This document shows, one piece after another, positions 30,126 to 58,209 of a DNA stretch of 64,000 bases. Numbering within the stretch: the first letter of the stretch is position 1; each line of letters opens with the position of its first letter. Both the position numbers and the translations under genes were made by a program. The notes under the pieces are model-generated. The model was not told the DNA's origin. It made no database searches and saw only the letters and a program-made list of their open reading frames with translations. The DNA is from Candidatus Pelagibacter sp. (lineage in GTDB: Bacteria > Pseudomonadota > Alphaproteobacteria > Pelagibacterales > Pelagibacteraceae), in assembly GCF_052049575.1 (NCBI RefSeq), contig NZ_JBNGZQ010000001.1, positions 40,209 through 104,208 on the forward strand, in the 5' to 3' direction.

Positions 30126-31041
30126 AATTGTTGCTATACAAGGAAATCACCCTTCTAAACTAAATCCAAAAACAGATACAAGTGTTTTTTTAGCCAATGA
30201 AATTCAAAAAAAGAAATATAGAATTTTTTATTATGATCCTAAAGATTTATCTATTGTAGATTCAAAAGTTATAGCAAAAGGTTTTTTTATTAAGTTTAAT
30301 TATAATGATAAAAAATTTTACAAAATCTTAAAAAAACAAAAGTTAAATCTTATCAAATGTAAATATATCTTAATAAGACAGGATCCTCCTTTTAATCTAG
30401 AATATATATCTACAACTTTTATTCTTGAGACAATTAAGGACAAAGTAAAAATTATAAACAATCCCACCTCAATCAGAAATATTTCTGAAAAACTTTATTC
30501 AGTCAAATATCTAAGATTTATGCCTGATACAATTTTTACTCAAAATATTAATGAAATTAAAAATTTTTTTAAAAAGAATAAAAGTGTAATTTTAAAACCT
30601 ATCCACAGCTTTAGTGGAAACGATATTCATTTACTTAATAAATTTAAATTAAACTTTGTAAAAAAATTTATTAAAAAACATGATCATATAATGTGTCAAA
30701 AATATCTACCTAAAATTAGCAAAGGGGATAAGAGAGTATTTTTGATTAATGGAAAAATATGTGGTGTGATTTCTAGAGTACCTAAAAAAGGATCATTTCT
30801 AAGTAATATGAGTAAAGGAGCAGCACCAATAAATATTCAATTAACAAAATTAGAAAAAAGAATATCAAATATAATTGCAAAAGATTTAAAGAAAGAAAAA
30901 ATTTATTTTGCTGGGATCGATTTTATCGATCAAAAACTAAATGGTGATATCAATGTTACATCTCCAACTGGATTAAAAACTTTATTCGATATATCTAAGA
31001 TTAATCTTGCCAAAATTTTTTGGAAAGATTTAAAAGTATGA
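30115..31041 (+). CDS. gshB: Glutathione synthetase
   Basis: RQDPPFN..YI, IINNP.SIRN.SEK, GDKRVFLING, SNM..GA, AGIDFI, INVTSPTG. Confidence 0.95.
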   Translation: MTNKIVAIQGNHPSKLNPKTDTSVFLANEIQKKKYRIFYYDPKDLSIVDSKVIAKGFFIKFNYNDKKFYKILKKQKLNLIKCKYILIRQDPPFNLEYISTTFILETIKDKVKIINNPTSIRNISEKLYSVKYLRFMPDTIFTQNINEIKNFFKKNKSVILKPIHSFSGNDIHLLNKFKLNFVKKFIKKHDHIMCQKYLPKISKGDKRVFLINGKICGVISRVPKKGSFLSNMSKGAAPINIQLTKLEKRISNIIAKDLKKEKIYFAGIDFIDQKLNGDINVTSPTGLKTLFDISKINLAKIFWKDLKV

Positions 31042-31898
31042 AAAATTTAACAGATCAGCAAAAAGGATCACTGCTTGCTTTCGTAGCTGTAATGTTTATT
31101 ACACCTGACTCTTTATTTATCAGACTTTCTAATATCGATACTTGGGGTCTTGTTTTTTATCGTGGAATAATTCCATTCTTAACAGTTTTTTTTGGAATGC
31201 TATTAATTTATAAATTAAATTTTTTTAAAATACTTTTTACAAGTGGTTATCATGGTATAATTTACGTGGCTACTTTTAGTATTACAAACATTACATTTGT
31301 AGTCTCTATTCAAAATACAAATGTAGCAAATACTTTAGTAATGATAGCAACCGCACCAATGTTATCAGCAATACTTGGTGCCATCGTTTTAAAGGAACCC
31401 CCTGACAAAAAAACTTGGCTTTCAATAATTGTTACTTTTTTTGCAATTATCTATATTTTTTTCGATTCTCTTAAATTAGGTAACTTTTATGGAGATATCT
31501 TAGGATTTATCACTGCAATTGGTCTTGCCGTAGGTGCTATTACAATCAGATCTGCAAAATCCAAAAATTTAGTTCCAGCAGCAGTAGTAGGCAAACTATT
31601 TGTTGCCACTTTCGCTTTATTCTTTATTGAGAGTTTTGCTCTTTTAGAAAAAGACCTGATTATAGTGCCTTTAATGTGCATTTTGTGTGTTGCTATACCT
31701 TTTGTCTTAGTGACTATTGCTCCAAGGTTTATCCCCGCTGCAGAGGTTAACTTGTTTTTTTTGCTAGAAACCATAATAGGTCCTATTTGGGTTTGGTTGA
31801 TTATTAAAGAACAACCAAGTATTGAAACTCTTTATGGTGGGATTGTTATTATAACGACCATTGCAATTCACTCTTTTTTAAAGCTTAAAAATTCTTAA
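31038..31898 (+). CDS. DMT/EamA-family transporter
   Basis: About 10 TM helices in two EamA repeats; TAPMLSAILG.IVLKE, IPAAEV.L..LLE. Start moved to ATG 31038, which overlaps the gshB stop (ATGA). Confidence 0.85.
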   Translation: MKNLTDQQKGSLLAFVAVMFITPDSLFIRLSNIDTWGLVFYRGIIPFLTVFFGMLLIYKLNFFKILFTSGYHGIIYVATFSITNITFVVSIQNTNVANTLVMIATAPMLSAILGAIVLKEPPDKKTWLSIIVTFFAIIYIFFDSLKLGNFYGDILGFITAIGLAVGAITIRSAKSKNLVPAAVVGKLFVATFALFFIESFALLEKDLIIVPLMCILCVAIPFVLVTIAPRFIPAAEVNLFFLLETIIGPIWVWLIIKEQPSIETLYGGIVIITTIAIHSFLKLKNS

Positions 31899-31956
31899 GC
31901 TTGTCACAATTAAGACTTGATTTAATAATACATCGCGAATACTTACGGCTGATTTT

Positions 31957-33297
31957 ATGGATAAAGTTTTAAAAAATTCGTGGGCTCTATTTTTGGGCAT
32001 GGGATGCATAATGATGGCCTATGGTTTTCAAGGATCTTTACTTGGAGTTAGAGCTGTCCAAGAAGAATTTAGTCTTACTTCCACCGGCTTTATGATGTCA
32101 GGATATTTTGTTGGTTATTTCATAGGAGCTGCAACTATACCAAAAATTATTTCCAGAGTTGGACATATAAGAGTTTTTGCTGCATTTGCTTCTTTAGCAT
32201 CATTAATAATTTTAATTCATTCAATATTAGTAAATCCTTTTATATGGTTTTTACTCAGAGTGCTTACTGGAATAAGTATGGTTTGTATTTACACTGTTGC
32301 AGAGAGTTGGCTAAACGATAGATCAAGTAACAAAAATAGAGGAAGTGTTTTATCTGTTTATATGGTCGTTCTTTATGGAACAATGGGAATTGGAATGTTC
32401 TTGCTTAATTTTAGTAGTCCTAAAAATTTTCAACCATTTATTTTAGTTTCTGTAATTACTTCAGCAGCACTGATTCCTATTTTGCTAACTAAAAAAAAAC
32501 CACCTACTTTTAAAAGTATTAAAGCTATGAACCTTAAAGAACTTTATCATGCTTCTCCATTTGGTATGGTAAGTTCTCTTTTTTATGGGACTATTCAATC
32601 TGCATTGTTTACTTTATTGGCTGTTTATGCAACATCAATGAATTTTACTATACTAGAAATTTCAATTGTGACTTTCCTTTTAGCAGTCTCAGGAGCAATA
32701 GCTCAATTTCCAATAGGAAAAATATCCGATATGTATGATAGAAGAAAAGTTATTGTTTTTAGCACGTTTGGTGCTGCAATGTTTTCAATTTTTGCAATAT
32801 TGGTATCAAGACAAATGTATTTACCTGGAAGCCTTGCAACTAGCAAAACATGGTTTTACGTTTTTTTTATTTTATTTTCTTTTTGTAGCTTGCCTATGTT
32901 TTCATTAATTTTAGCTCATACGAATGACTACATATCAAAAGATAAATTTGTTGCTGCTGGTGCAGGACTACAGTTTGCATTTGGATTAGGTGCTATGAGT
33001 GGGCCATTTTTGTGCTCAATATTTATGGACTTAGTCGGATCAAATGGATTTTTTATATTTTTATTTTTCTTTCATTGCGTTATAGGTTTTTTTGGTATTT
33101 ATCGAATGAAAGTAAGACAGAGTGTTGATAACCCCGATTCCCAATTTGTTGCTATGCCACAAACAATTACTCCAGCTGGAATAGAGTTAAATCCAATAAC
33201 GGAACATATTGAAGAACCCTACTCAGACAAAGTAAAAGAAATATTAGAGAGAAAAGGTGTTAAATATAAAAAAGATGAAGATCAAATGAAAGCTTAG
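31957..33297 (+). CDS. MFS transporter, YcaD-like
   Basis: About 12 TM helices; MSGYFVGYF.G, VGHIRVFAAFASL, AESWLN, QFPIGKISD.YDRR. Confidence 0.88.
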   Translation: MDKVLKNSWALFLGMGCIMMAYGFQGSLLGVRAVQEEFSLTSTGFMMSGYFVGYFIGAATIPKIISRVGHIRVFAAFASLASLIILIHSILVNPFIWFLLRVLTGISMVCIYTVAESWLNDRSSNKNRGSVLSVYMVVLYGTMGIGMFLLNFSSPKNFQPFILVSVITSAALIPILLTKKKPPTFKSIKAMNLKELYHASPFGMVSSLFYGTIQSALFTLLAVYATSMNFTILEISIVTFLLAVSGAIAQFPIGKISDMYDRRKVIVFSTFGAAMFSIFAILVSRQMYLPGSLATSKTWFYVFFILFSFCSLPMFSLILAHTNDYISKDKFVAAGAGLQFAFGLGAMSGPFLCSIFMDLVGSNGFFIFLFFFHCVIGFFGIYRMKVRQSVDNPDSQFVAMPQTITPAGIELNPITEHIEEPYSDKVKEILERKGVKYKKDEDQMKA

Positions 33298-33929: not shown

Positions 33930-34102
33930 GCAACTTTAATAATATTTACGTTCGATTTATGCAAAAAGATTATGAATTTTGTTATTTTTAACAAGTATTA
34001 ATCACTTACAGGTTGAAACTCAAAATAAGCACTAAAGAGCTAAAGCGAAGATTGAAACATTGAAAAAATATAAAATATTTGTTCTTATACACGAATAAAA
34101 AA

Positions 34103-34840
34103 ATGCCTAAAAAAAAAATTAAACAAAAAAAAATAAAAAAAAAAATTGGGGTTGCGAAGATCGCTAATTTTTCTACTAAATCCTTTTTAAGTAATGCAAT
34201 TTCTAATTACAAAAAAAACAAAGAAATTAATAAAATCAAAGCTATTAAATTAGAAAAACTACAAGAAAAAAATCAAATCCTTAAAGAAAGAAAAGATCTT
34301 AAAATTTGGGAAGAAAGACTCATTAAAGAAAGCAATAAATTAAAATTTAATGAAGATGAATTAAGATTGAAAGAAAAAGAAATTAAGATTAAAGAGGACG
34401 CTCAAAAGTTAGAGTCAACTAGATTAATGAAAAAAGATGAAGAGTTAGTACTTATAAGTAAAGAACTAAGAGCTAAAGAGAAAGAACTAAAATTAAGAGA
34501 AGAGTCTCAAAATAGAAAAGATATTGATTTAAAGGTTCGAGAAGAAGAGCAAAAAAACTTTGAACTTAAAGAAAAAAGAAGAAAAGAAAGAGCCTTAAAA
34601 ATGATTAAAGAAGAAGAAGAAAAACAAAAAGAACTTGAGTATATTAAAATAAAAGAATGGGAAGAAAAATTTGATAGAGAACAAAAAGCAAAAGAACATA
34701 GAGAAAATTTAAGAGAAGAGAGATTAAGACAAAGAGAATTAGAAAAACTTAAATCATTCGAAAAAACTGAAAATCCTGTTGACAAAAATCTTTCCTCAGG
34801 ATTAGAAAAATTTGAAGTAGATGTTACAAAAGAAAATTAA
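34103..34840 (+). CDS. Hypothetical Lys/Glu-rich coiled-coil protein
   Basis: Long open frame (TTG at 34079 in the ORF track, or ATG at 34103). Basic N-terminus followed by 12 uninterrupted heptads. No recognised family. Confidence 0.6.
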   Translation: MPKKKIKQKKIKKKIGVAKIANFSTKSFLSNAISNYKKNKEINKIKAIKLEKLQEKNQILKERKDLKIWEERLIKESNKLKFNEDELRLKEKEIKIKEDAQKLESTRLMKKDEELVLISKELRAKEKELKLREESQNRKDIDLKVREEEQKNFELKEKRRKERALKMIKEEEEKQKELEYIKIKEWEEKFDREQKAKEHRENLREERLRQRELEKLKSFEKTENPVDKNLSSGLEKFEVDVTKEN

Positions 34841-35958
34841 TTTTTCTGAATAGGAAAATAATCTTTTAAATCACCTTCCCTATAAACATCAGCTGTACAA
34901 CAATGAATACCGCCGCCAAAGGCATAAGCATCTCTTAATTCGACAGGAACAACTTCCATTCCTAATTTATCTAATTGTTCAGCTTGGTAAATTTCACTTT
35001 TTTCGACGCAAACTGTTTTTGGATCAAGAACTAAAACATTCATAGATAACCATACTGATGAGTAACAAAGTGGTGGTGGTTCATTATGTGCTGGCTGAGC
35101 GCTATCAATTATTTTCCATCCATTGTCCTCAAATAGTTTTCTTTGTTCTTTTGGTAGTCTTCTTTGAGGATTATTTATAATTAAACCTTCTTTAATGGGT
35201 GTAAAAGTTGCATCAATATGAATTGGATATGGATCACCTGGAAAATTTACAGCATGAACTCTATGATCTTTAAAATGTCTTCTTAACCAATCAATTCCTT
35301 TTAAATTTGTTGTAAAACCATGTTGTACAATTAAGTCCTTTCCGAACCTCAAAACATCTGCAGCATCAAATAAAGGTTCCTCTTCTGTTGTTACAAAGAA
35401 TTTTTCTTCAGTCCATTTAAGTCTTTTTTGAATACCGATCTTGTCTGACAAATAATCTTCACGATAATCTGCGTCTGTTAATCTTGGTTTTGGTGCAGTT
35501 TCATGACGCATATTCTTGTCTATTTCAAAATATTTTTTAATCAGCGGTCTATAATTTAGATATTCAAACCATCTACATCTATAGCTCATTGTTGCTTCAA
35601 GCATTTCATTTCCAACTGTAAGTATAATATCTCTAGCTGGCATACATCCAAACATACTATCAACCTTCCAATCGGGAGTAGAAATTTTTTGATTATGATT
35701 TAGTGGAACTGGTCGGTCAACTTTAATGCCTCTTTTTTCCAAGATTGAAGCAAAATTATTTAATAACTCATTTGCTTTATCAACTGTATCTTTAGTACGA
35801 GGTCCATGAGAACCTTTCATATCTGAGTCTTCTGGTACTTTAGCATCTAAAGCAGGTTCTGGTGCAGGTATACAACAACCGTCTGCTTTTCCAACTATAA
35901 CATGTTTAAGTGGATCCCATTCGTTCCAACTATTTACAATAACTTTGTCCTTACTCAT
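34837..35958 (-). CDS. Amidinotransferase, glycine amidinotransferase (AGAT)-like
   Basis: SWNEWDPLKHVIVG, RDIILTVGNEMLEATM..R.RWFEY, APKP, EPLFDAAD, HIDATF, WLSMNVL and GGGIHCCT.DV.R.G, all collinear with AGAT. The Asp-His-Cys catalytic triad is present. Confidence 0.9.
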   Translation of the reverse strand: MSKDKVIVNSWNEWDPLKHVIVGKADGCCIPAPEPALDAKVPEDSDMKGSHGPRTKDTVDKANELLNNFASILEKRGIKVDRPVPLNHNQKISTPDWKVDSMFGCMPARDIILTVGNEMLEATMSYRCRWFEYLNYRPLIKKYFEIDKNMRHETAPKPRLTDADYREDYLSDKIGIQKRLKWTEEKFFVTTEEEPLFDAADVLRFGKDLIVQHGFTTNLKGIDWLRRHFKDHRVHAVNFPGDPYPIHIDATFTPIKEGLIINNPQRRLPKEQRKLFEDNGWKIIDSAQPAHNEPPPLCYSSVWLSMNVLVLDPKTVCVEKSEIYQAEQLDKLGMEVVPVELRDAYAFGGGIHCCTADVYREGDLKDYFPIQKN

Positions 35959-35967
35959 GTTTCAAGA

Positions 35968-36873
35968 TTAATTTAAAGCTATAAATCTTTTATTCCATCG
36001 CATTAACAAACTGTAATAAATTAATGAAATAAATAGAAAAAATCCTCCGACTATAGTGTAAGTATCAGGCACTTCATTTATGCCTAAGATAGGTAACCAA
36101 ACCCAAAAAATTCCACCAATAACTTCAGTCAATGATAGTAATGTTAATTCTGCAGCAGGAATAGCTTTCGAACCAATAGAATATAAAATTAGCCCTAAAC
36201 AAACTAATGTTCCATGTAAGGAAAATAATGCTCCATTATAACTTGTTGAAAAGAATACTTGTTTAGTGCTCAAAAGCATTATAGCTGCAAAAACAAAACA
36301 AAAAAAACCTGAAAAAGCAACAGTTGTAAACTTTGGGGTTTGTGTTCTCCACCTAAGAGTTACAGAAAAAATAGAAAATCCAATTGATGAAAGCATTCCA
36401 AAAATAAAACCAACGAGAGAATTTGATCCAGTACTTCCAAACGCCATAATTATAATTCCTATCGTTGCAATAAAAATAGATATCCAAACATTTAATGAAA
36501 TTTTTTCTTTGAGAAATAAAAAAGCAAGAAGTGCAGTAAAAAAAGGCATTGCTGCCAAGCAAAGCAAAGTGATTGCAGCTGACGCATTGGTAATTGAGTA
36601 AATAAAACTTATCATCGCAATTCCTAATCCGGTTCCACCAATAATTCCTGAGTATCCCATTTTTAAATAATTTTTATAAAATTTGATCCCCTCCTCAAAA
36701 TAAAGATAAAGATTTAAAAGAATAAAAATTGTTAACCCTCTACCAAAAATATACTGCCATGGTACCTGGTTAGGATTATCCATATATCTCACAACAAGAG
36801 GGCCAAAAGACCATAAAATTCCTGCGAACAAAACTACTGGAACTGCGATTTTTGGATTTTTTAATTCAAGCAT
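35968..36873 (-). CDS. DMT/EamA-family transporter
   Basis: About 10 TM helices; AMPFFTALLAFLFLKEKI, IPAAELTLLSLTE; ends 9 nt before the amidinotransferase start. Confidence 0.87.
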   Translation of the reverse strand: MLELKNPKIAVPVVLFAGILWSFGPLVVRYMDNPNQVPWQYIFGRGLTIFILLNLYLYFEEGIKFYKNYLKMGYSGIIGGTGLGIAMISFIYSITNASAAITLLCLAAMPFFTALLAFLFLKEKISLNVWISIFIATIGIIIMAFGSTGSNSLVGFIFGMLSSIGFSIFSVTLRWRTQTPKFTTVAFSGFFCFVFAAIMLLSTKQVFFSTSYNGALFSLHGTLVCLGLILYSIGSKAIPAAELTLLSLTEVIGGIFWVWLPILGINEVPDTYTIVGGFFLFISLIYYSLLMRWNKRFIALN

Positions 36874-37015
36874 CTGGGAAGATTAAATCTAAAAATTTAT
36901 AACTACAACAAAAATGAGATAGCTTTAATCTTAAATTTAACTTTTCCATTTAAAGTTGTGTTCAGCCTATTTCTATTCTTGAATGGTTTTTATTTGTCAT
37001 GTAATTAAAATTAAT

Positions 37016-58029: not shown

Positions 58030-58178
58030 CCCATCTGTATATTTGCCTGAGAGTTTTGCTCCTTCGGCGAGAATTAAATCTCTTTCCAGAGTTAATATGT
58101 TACGGTCCTTTTTGCCTGAGAGATTCCCGGGTAGTTGCTCCTTCGGCGCTACGATAATCTGTAGTCTCTCCCGTAAAG
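58030..58178 (-). ncRNA. Tandem glycine riboswitch in the gcvT leader
   Basis: The minus strand carries two aptamers, each with GGA(G/A)AGA...CGCCGAAGGAGCAA...CTCTCAGGCAA. Aptamer 1 spans ~58178-58099 and is closed by TTACGG/CCGTAA; aptamer 2 spans ~58092-58030. It ends ~15 nt before the gcvT ATG. Confidence 0.95.
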
Positions 58179-58180
58179 CA

Positions 58181-58209
58181 ATAGTCCTATAAGTAACTTA
58201 AAATGTCAA
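58181..58209 (-). promoter_or_regulatory. Candidate sigma70 promoter for the riboswitch-gcvTHP transcript
   Basis: Minus-strand TTGACA (58209-58204, overlapping the DMT stop codon), 17-nt spacer, then GACTAT. The -35 is perfect and the -10 is weak. Confidence 0.35.

Follow-up and report, generated by a model that had tools for sequence, protein, structure and literature searches.

In the window analysed here, a stretch of 64,000 nucleotides from a Candidatus Pelagibacter genome, a gene for an EamA-family permease is followed directly by a gene for an amidinotransferase of the arginine:glycine amidinotransferase (AGAT) type. We believe the chances are about even that this pair is a SAR11 operon that scavenges N-amidino-glycine compounds, yielding glycine or sarcosine together with arginine. 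An earlier note on this DNA had proposed a salvage module; that proposal gains from the catabolic partners of the locus and from the absence of biosynthetic clusters, while the altered acceptor pocket is a weak argument. New here are the near-core status of the amidinotransferase, its linkage to EamA in 72 of 72 loci, a modular operon with creatinase and threonine aldolase, and the absence of the examined homologues from biosynthetic clusters. We found no paper on this amidinotransferase gene in SAR11, in keeping with the note, which knew of no description.

The gene pair and its transcription

The features to which we refer are these.

35968 to 36873, minus strand: EamA/DMT-family permease of 301 aa, the upstream gene of the pair (Pfam EamA and TIGR00950)
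34837 to 35958, minus strand: AGAT-like amidinotransferase, 373 aa, member of a tight marine alphaproteobacterial clade
35959 to 35967, minus strand: 9-nt spacer separating the EamA stop from the amidinotransferase start
35218 to 35235, minus strand: 300-flap and catalytic His, D242-P-Y244-P-I246-H247 (human D298-P-N300-P-M302-H303)
34900 to 34902, minus strand: codon of Cys353, equivalent to the human catalytic Cys407, which carries the amidino group in AGAT
36874 to 36982, no strand: AT-rich intergenic region of 109 nt, shared by the pair and a divergently oriented NifU-like gene, where the promoter of the pair presumably lies

Both reading frames and the spacer were found as the note had them, on the same strand and 9 nt apart. 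A sequence scan for promoters and terminators, which is uninformative in such AT-rich DNA, returned no terminator-like site between 34500 and 37200, and promoter-like matches upstream of the pair at a frequency not above that in shuffled sequence. Because the spacer is free of terminator-like sites, the two genes probably share a single transcript. A regulatory RNA upstream of the pair was considered and set aside, as no Rfam family matched at the gathering threshold or at E<=1. The window has one riboswitch, of the glycine class, at a distance of 21 kb from the pair.

The amidinotransferase and its active site

The 373-aa protein matches the human AGAT chains 1jdx and 1jdw at E values of 7e-85 to 1e-84 over residues 8-368, with 42% identity in BLASTP and 44% when aligned globally; SxtG (7e-63), HsvA (7e-59) and StrB1 (5e-51) come next. 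Pfam detects only its C-terminal ADI-superfamily stretch, and it is the full-length homology to solved amidinotransferases that places the protein in the AGAT-type family. A sister relationship with animal AGAT finds no support in the tree. Databases mislabel this family as 'serine/threonine protein kinase'.

The protein contains the motifs LFDAAD, GDPYPIHIDAT, NNPQRR and GGGIHCCT, and the alignment bears out the note's reading of an intact catalytic triad, with human D254, H303 and C407 corresponding to D198, H247 and C353. The triad residues are kept in 120-121 of 121 clade homologues, and the G-x-x-H-C-x-T motif in 120 of 121. Also retained are the substrate-anchoring residues, namely the Arg322 equivalent that the note had pointed out (R266) together with D110, D249 and S300/S301 (human D170, D305 and S354/S355).

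The flap is changed from DPNPM to DPYPI, as the note described, with N300 replaced by Y244 and M302 by I246; W408 of human AGAT is altered as well, to C354. The SAR11 enzyme therefore lacks the Asn300 and Met302 of the human protein, a feature that is not universal, since CyrA differs too, and FPGDPYPIHID is present in 117 of the 121 clade homologues. The note had read these changes as an altered acceptor pocket. As an argument for an acceptor other than glycine they are weak, because the strict arginine:glycine enzymes CyrA (EC 2.1.4.1) and AoaA are also altered there, carrying Phe and Ser at the 300 and 302 positions (PMC4887976, PMC3684758).

The permease

Pfam EamA (1.8e-16, residues 10-144) and TIGR00950 (1.6e-15, residues 77-282) both match the 301-aa protein, whose second EamA repeat is too diverged for Pfam. 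With an EamA domain and a roughly 10-TM, 300-aa architecture, it has the features of the EamA/DMT family. Among proteins of solved structure just one is related to it, the choline importer LicB, and that match is weak, at E 6e-4. The protein presumably transports a guanidino substrate or product of the amidinotransferase. Characterised EamA-family proteins are mostly exporters, and this counts against the salvage reading.

Distribution of the pair

The amidinotransferase is near-core in Pelagibacterales and rare in other Alphaproteobacteria. Of 61 relatives, 51 have it, as do 20 of 21 high-quality Pelagibacterales genomes; its homologues number more than 2370, with 75-87% identity across SAR11, Rhodobacterales and Rhizobiales. 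In Pelagibacteraceae, all 72 loci whose upstream DNA extends far enough have an EamA gene upstream on the same strand, so the pairing is no product of chance; the EamA proteins of these loci are 65-99% identical. The unit of EamA and amidinotransferase is a near-core SAR11 pair and no rarity of the present genome.

Outside Pelagibacteraceae, in the second SAR11 family, Rhodobacterales and Rhizobiales, the amidinotransferase gene is solitary, neither a transporter nor a creatinase being linked to it, which implies a core role independent of the operon and counts against the salvage reading. No conserved neighbourhood was found among 8 loci outside SAR11. The EamA-like gene of the second SAR11 family adjoins genes for an Fe-ADH, a dienelactone hydrolase and a beta-lactamase-like protein, and is uninformative. 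An apparent joint loss of both genes in G008 was discarded as evidence, as the flanking HPP gene lies at a contig start.

Gene neighbourhood and operon partners

The 15 kb around the pair hold purF, HD, gshA, gshB, a second EamA gene, an MFS gene and cmk, along with a K/E-rich ORF, a NifU-like gene, HPP, a Liv-type ABC system and formate dehydrogenase. In agreement with the note, none of the genes in this 15 kb is of PKS/NRPS, aminoglycoside, methyltransferase or guanidino-kinase type, and no GAMT, the partner expected for creatine biosynthesis, lies within 10 kb of the pair. The note had named a consistent location of homologues in biosynthetic clusters as grounds against its idea, but a neighbourhood survey of 80 plus 8 SAR11 and 8 non-SAR11 loci encountered zero PKS, NRPS or aminoglycoside genes; the cluster location typical of secondary-metabolite amidinotransferases is thus not seen.

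The genes that optionally join the pair are degradative. In 23 of 72 loci the space between EamA and the amidinotransferase is occupied by a true creatinase (1chm, E 1e-159), the only gene ever inserted there; in same-genus genomes with both genes, it abuts the amidinotransferase in 11 of 11, at 8-16 nt. Another 27 of the 72 counts concern an L-threonine aldolase (E 3e-107), which in those loci lies directly downstream of the amidinotransferase, no more than 1 nt away. The locus is thus modular, and its optional partners are all catabolic, yielding glycine or sarcosine. One genome, G004, carries a divergent copy of the amidinotransferase in an osmolyte-catabolism island with BHMT-like, DMG/sarcosine-dehydrogenase-like, Rieske and DddP-like genes. 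A GAMT candidate beside that copy was rejected, the methyltransferase there being METTL27-like and not GAMT-like.

Neither a true creatinase nor a threonine aldolase was found in the genome to which the window belongs; its sole M24 creatinase-like gene resembles the ectoine hydrolase DoeA and was dropped as a creatinase candidate.

A proposed salvage pathway

We infer the substrate, the direction of the reaction and the direction of transport from genomic context, and the pathway may be pictured as follows. The DMT permease would import guanidinoacetate, possibly creatine. The AGAT-like enzyme would then run the known ping-pong transamidination in its reverse sense: the guanidino compound would hand its amidino group to Cys353, freeing glycine (or sarcosine, with creatine as the donor), and the amidino group would be moved to ornithine from the ArgJ pathway to form arginine. 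Guanidinoacetate is a documented amidino donor in the reverse reaction for both human AGAT and CyrA (PMC4887976), and the genome search found ArgJ and ArgG, hence the cell's own synthesis of ornithine and arginine. The gain would be threefold. The cell would obtain glycine, which SAR11 requires as a conditional auxotroph, using glycine betaine and sarcosine (PMC9321204); it would obtain ready-made arginine at no cost in carbamoyl phosphate, aspartate or ATP; and it would retain the two amidino nitrogens, whereas creatinase-type hydrolysis would turn them into urea, a loss in a genome where no urease alpha subunit was found. A creatinase and a creatine-to-glycine route have been noted in SAR11 (PMC3686209).

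At the same time, some points weigh against salvage. Arginine demand would cap the glycine yield, because no arginase proper of the rocF type was found in the genome. Our literature search returned no demonstration of guanidinoacetate availability in seawater. Finally, the common theme of the operon partners leaves the direction of a reversible enzyme unfixed.

No marine heterotroph is more abundant than SAR11, whose growth is shaped both by scarce nitrogen and by a need for glycine. If the salvage reading is true, compounds of the creatine type excreted by animals and algae would be turned into glycine and arginine, a new entry on the short list of SAR11 substrates, and SAR11 would be tied to the marine creatine and guanidino pool. 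The enzyme would be the first of the AGAT family with a catabolic or salvage role in primary metabolism, and the annotation of a mislabelled family would gain.

Alternative explanations

The amidinotransferase might instead be a forward, biosynthetic AGAT that makes guanidinoacetate and ornithine from arginine and glycine, with EamA exporting the guanidinoacetate or the cell using it otherwise. We consider this unlikely, although it has substance: all characterised members of the family work physiologically in the forward direction, human AGAT is the nearest enzyme of solved structure, CyrA, which is strict for arginine and glycine, is likewise aromatic at position 300, and many characterised EamA proteins export. 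Nevertheless, forward synthesis would use up glycine, and SAR11 is a conditional auxotroph for this amino acid (PMC9321204). It would also lack a nearby methyltransferase or guanidino kinase, the methyltransferase in G004 being METTL27-like, and the optional creatinase and threonine aldolase are degradative; synthesis paired with creatinase would be futile.

Distinctly unlikely is a natural partner other than glycine and guanidinoacetate, with specificity set by the clade-specific DPYPI flap. The candidates would be taurine/taurocyamine, beta-alanine/3-guanidinopropionate, GABA/4-guanidinobutyrate and lysine/homoarginine. The flap is unlike that of human AGAT and invariant in the clade (117/121), flap residues tune the specificity of CyrA and matter in AmtA (PMC4887976), and a KEGG-based preprint on bloom MAGs lists GATM as a taurine-to-taurocyamine enzyme (10.1101/2024.12.10.627767). 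The genome has two agmatinase-family ureohydrolases, and since one is GpuA/GbuA-like (3nip, E 4e-80), guanidino acids would be part of its metabolism. However, the inserted creatinase acts on N-methyl-guanidinoacetate and the downstream partner makes glycine, which argues for a glycine scaffold, and the alpha-carboxylate-binding residues R266 and S300/S301 are retained.

It is quite improbable that the SAR11 enzyme interconverts creatine and ornithine with sarcosine and arginine. We know of no amidinotransferase with a secondary amine as acceptor; DDAH, of the same superfamily, cleaves N-methylated guanidines, and DDAH profile matches to the amidinotransferase are weak. Creatinase as the sole insert between transporter and enzyme is cited for this activity. 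Were it real, the protein would be the 'unidentified enzyme' of North Pacific communities that made 13C3,15N1-creatine from glycine-betaine-derived sarcosine (PMC9321204), and might account for that unexplained isotope-tracing result, the formation of creatine from sarcosine. SAR11 without creatinase, the present genome included, could then use creatine and keep both amidino nitrogens.

Very improbable, lastly, is a substitute for arginase that turns arginine into ornithine by using glycine as a catalytic carrier, after which a ureohydrolase would hydrolyse the guanidinoacetate or the cell would export it, so that the pair would serve arginine catabolism: the genome does lack a rocF-type arginase and has the two agmatinase-family enzymes, but the GpuA/GbuA-like one is unlinked to the pair (on another contig, beside an aldehyde dehydrogenase) and has no known guanidinoacetase activity, the route would be costlier than a single arginase, and the creatinase and threonine aldolase linkage would be unexplained.

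Comparison with known systems

Vertebrate AGAT (GATM, EC 2.1.4.1) is alike in full-length homology, in the Cys-His-Asp triad and in the equivalents of Asp170, Asp305, Arg322 and Ser354-355, and the human enzyme can also run in reverse, taking guanidinoacetate as the donor (PMC4887976). The SAR11 enzyme differs in carrying DPYPI rather than DPNPM and Cys for Trp408, and in having no mitochondrial presequence; its gene lies in a probable operon with a DMT permease, with no GAMT or creatine kinase gene nearby, and its proposed physiological direction is the reverse one.

CyrA and AoaA, compared here by published description, share membership of the bacterial AGAT family, an aromatic residue at the Asn300 position (their Phe245) and a residue other than Met at 302, but they belong to PKS/NRPS clusters, where the SAR11 clade loci are never found. 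AmtA (the Pseudomonas arginine:lysine enzyme), StrB1 (inosamine-phosphate) and HsvA are of the same fold family and share the chemistry of reversible transamidination (PMC4887976), yet are more distant in sequence, use other acceptors and stand in a biosynthetic or virulence-factor context.

The creatinase route assumed for SAR11 subgroup Ia converts creatine to sarcosine and urea, the sarcosine then being oxidised to glycine. Substrate class and end product are common to this route and the proposed transamidination; whereas hydrolysis frees urea, transamidination would keep the amidino nitrogen as arginine.

Gene pair and its surroundings

The ORF map, together with the EamA and AGAT matches, confirms the two-gene, single-strand unit described in the earlier note, with 9 nt separating the permease ORF from that of the amidinotransferase:

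34837..35958, minus strand: AGAT-type amidinotransferase, full-length, 373 aa, matching solved AGAT structures
35968..36873, minus strand: EamA/DMT permease, 301 aa (Pfam EamA, 1.8e-16; TIGR00950, 1.6e-15)

Among solved structures, the amidinotransferase matches human AGAT (1jdx/1jdw, E 7e-85 to 1e-84), SxtG (7e-63), HsvA (7e-59) and StrB1 (5e-51), and it is 42% (BLASTP) or 44% (global alignment) identical to human AGAT. Every motif quoted in the earlier note is found in the sequence. In the alignment, human D170, D254, H303, D305, R322, S354/355 and C407 are kept as D110, D198, H247, D249, R266, S300/301 and C353, while N300, M302 and W408 are altered to Y244, I246 and C354, respectively.

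The 15 kb around the pair encode purF, an HD protein, gshA, gshB, a second EamA, an MFS transporter, cmk, a K/E-rich ORF, a NifU-like gene, HPP, a Liv-type ABC system and formate dehydrogenase; biosynthetic, methyltransferase and kinase genes are absent from this flanking DNA, so the claim that the pair has no biosynthetic-type neighbours holds. The lysine/glutamate-rich ORF (34079-34840, plus strand, 253 aa), a probable coiled coil lacking a Pfam match, is convergent with the amidinotransferase gene, whose stop lies within a 4-nt overlap of the two; the ORF keeps its position in many relatives, and the version in G013 is 63% identical. The second EamA permease, 26-31% identical to that of the pair, and the MFS transporter lie after gshA-gshB in the same orientation (31020-33297, plus), an order also kept in relatives.

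Operon architecture

We sorted 80 Pelagibacteraceae loci by tblastn; denominators of 72 or 65 count loci with enough readable DNA. A same-strand EamA gene lies upstream of the amidinotransferase in all loci with sufficient upstream DNA (72/72). In 23 of the 72 the two are separated by a 405-aa gene for a true creatinase, which matches 1chm, the Pseudomonas enzyme, at E 1e-159. In 27 of 72 the amidinotransferase is followed, at no more than 1 nt, by an L-threonine aldolase of 349 aa (1v72/7yvr, E 3e-107 to 1e-102). Both flanks are readable at 65 loci: 32 show the bare pair, as in the window, 14 both inserts, 12 the aldolase alone and 7 the creatinase alone. True creatinase occurs in 13 of 61 relatives, and lies 8-16 nt from the amidinotransferase in all 11 same-genus genomes carrying both.

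In the relative G004, the amidinotransferase is missing from the native locus, where EamA and threonine aldolase are directly adjacent, and a 75% identical, divergent copy is found in an island with BHMT-like, dimethylglycine/sarcosine-dehydrogenase-like, carnitine-monooxygenase-like Rieske, SET, METTL27-like methyltransferase and DddP-like genes (loci L123, G004:C2:18000-29000, and L026, G004:C4:91000-105000). In the second SAR11 family the amidinotransferase lies beside rodA-pbp2-mreCD-mreB genes and an FAD monooxygenase, and a 41-44% identical EamA relative is located elsewhere among uninformative neighbours. At non-SAR11 loci the gene is solitary.

Distribution and phylogeny

The amidinotransferase is single-copy in the window's genome (1.19 Mb, 99.8% complete, SAR11-type) and present in 51 of 61 relatives, including 20 of 21 high-quality genomes, with both families of the order represented. 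One sister genus (two complete 1.2-Mb genomes) lacks it along with the EamA orthologue and HPP. Across the class it is rare. Of 397 good alphaproteobacterial genomes, just 12 yield a match, and outside the window's genus copies above 60% identity are confined to seven (71-79% identical to the SAR11 protein). Over 2370 homologues that are 75-87% identical occur in a large protein collection; they come from Rhodobacterales, Rhizobiales and unnamed marine bacteria, and some belong to clusters of thousands of members. Clustering at 50% merges the entire clade, the next full-length relatives being 40-47% identical.

In a maximum-likelihood tree the SAR11-type clade is tight, human AGAT is not its sister, and the copies from Rhodobacterales and Rhizobiales fall between those of the two SAR11 families. 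This placement, the patchy distribution and an adjacent transposase suggest lateral transfer among marine Alphaproteobacteria; the transposase, of the IS1595 family, directly adjoins the orthologue in the non-SAR11 genome G115 (L116, 8597-10003). JGI names the family glycine amidinotransferase and NCBI names it serine/threonine protein kinase (for example clade members P0015, P0017, P0047 and P0080); the clade's sequences offer no support for the kinase name, which is an annotation error.

Full-text searches found no paper discussing this gene in SAR11, in line with the earlier note. A SAR11 creatinase and creatine-to-glycine route have been mentioned (PMC3686209); the text of Sun et al. 2011 mentions neither creatine nor amidinotransferase.

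Metabolic context

The window's genome encodes ArgJ and argininosuccinate synthase, so ornithine is available as an intermediate. It lacks the urease alpha subunit, true creatinase, threonine aldolase and a BHMT-like gene, and has two DMG/sarcosine-dehydrogenase-like genes. Of its two agmatinase-family enzymes, both encoded outside the window, the GpuA/GbuA-like ureohydrolase (G000:C2:427048-427866; L111, 1477-2463) lies directly upstream of an aldehyde dehydrogenase and best matches 3-guanidinopropionase and guanidinobutyrase (3nip, 4e-80; 3nio, 1e-76); it is a second indication that guanidino compounds are part of the metabolism encoded by this small genome. The other, an agmatinase (G000:C1:535046-535834; L112), adjoins a match to 1,9-bis(guanidino)-5-aza-nonane synthase (NF002699, 5e-175), which suggests an agmatine-based homospermidine route. 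A glycine riboswitch aptamer (RF00504, 65.8 bits; window 58093-58183, minus), 21 kb from the pair, probably controls minus-strand glycine-cleavage genes, judging by position.

Proposed role and alternatives

Overall, the enzyme represents a separate clade within a known family; its operon is new, and so, probably, is its physiological role. The favoured explanation, about as likely as not, is that the two genes serve to salvage N-amidino-glycine compounds. The permease would import guanidinoacetate, perhaps creatine, and the amidinotransferase would carry the amidino group via Cys353 onto ornithine, giving arginine plus glycine or sarcosine. The cell would thereby gain glycine, on which SAR11 depends (PMC9321204), avoid paying for the final three steps to arginine, and retain nitrogen that would be lost as urea if creatinase acted. 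The earlier note's interpretation is partly supported: the invariant EamA pairing and an operon that recruits solely degradative, glycine- or sarcosine-yielding genes speak for salvage, and the altered acceptor pocket is a weak argument. Against salvage, characterised EamA proteins are mostly exporters, the enzyme occurs alone in other lineages, and the stoichiometry would be bounded by arginine demand.

The forward AGAT reaction with product export, compatible with an exporter family and set among degradative operon partners, is unlikely. Somewhat less likely is a different amine/guanidino pair, such as taurine/taurocyamine, with the flap setting that specificity. It is improbable that the enzyme interconverts creatine and ornithine with sarcosine and arginine; creatinase is the sole gene seen to intervene between permease and enzyme, and Boysen et al. 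observed 13C3,15N1-creatine from glycine-betaine-derived sarcosine in communities with SAR11-dominated bhmt transcription, which they explained by an unidentified enzyme or reversible creatinase (PMC9321204). Arginase proper is absent from the window's genome, and a role as its substitute, with glycine as carrier, is very improbable.

Comparison with characterised amidinotransferases

The salvage reading would run AGAT in reverse, established chemistry for human AGAT and CyrA, since both naturally take guanidinoacetate as amidino donor (PMC4887976). The flap FPGDPYPIHID is kept in 117 of 121 clade homologues and is thus a clade signature. The corresponding segments are D-P-N-P-M in human AGAT, D-M-H-P-M in AmtA and D-I-F-P-S in CyrA; CyrA/AoaA is strict for arginine:glycine, and changes at Phe245 or Ser247 broaden its specificity (PMC4887976, PMC3684758). 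The Asn300 and Met302 positions are indeed changed, as noted earlier, yet by this comparison the altered flap, taken alone, does not mean that the acceptor differs: CyrA carries an aromatic Phe at flap position 300, as the SAR11 enzyme carries Tyr, and its glycine specificity is a precedent for an aromatic residue there.
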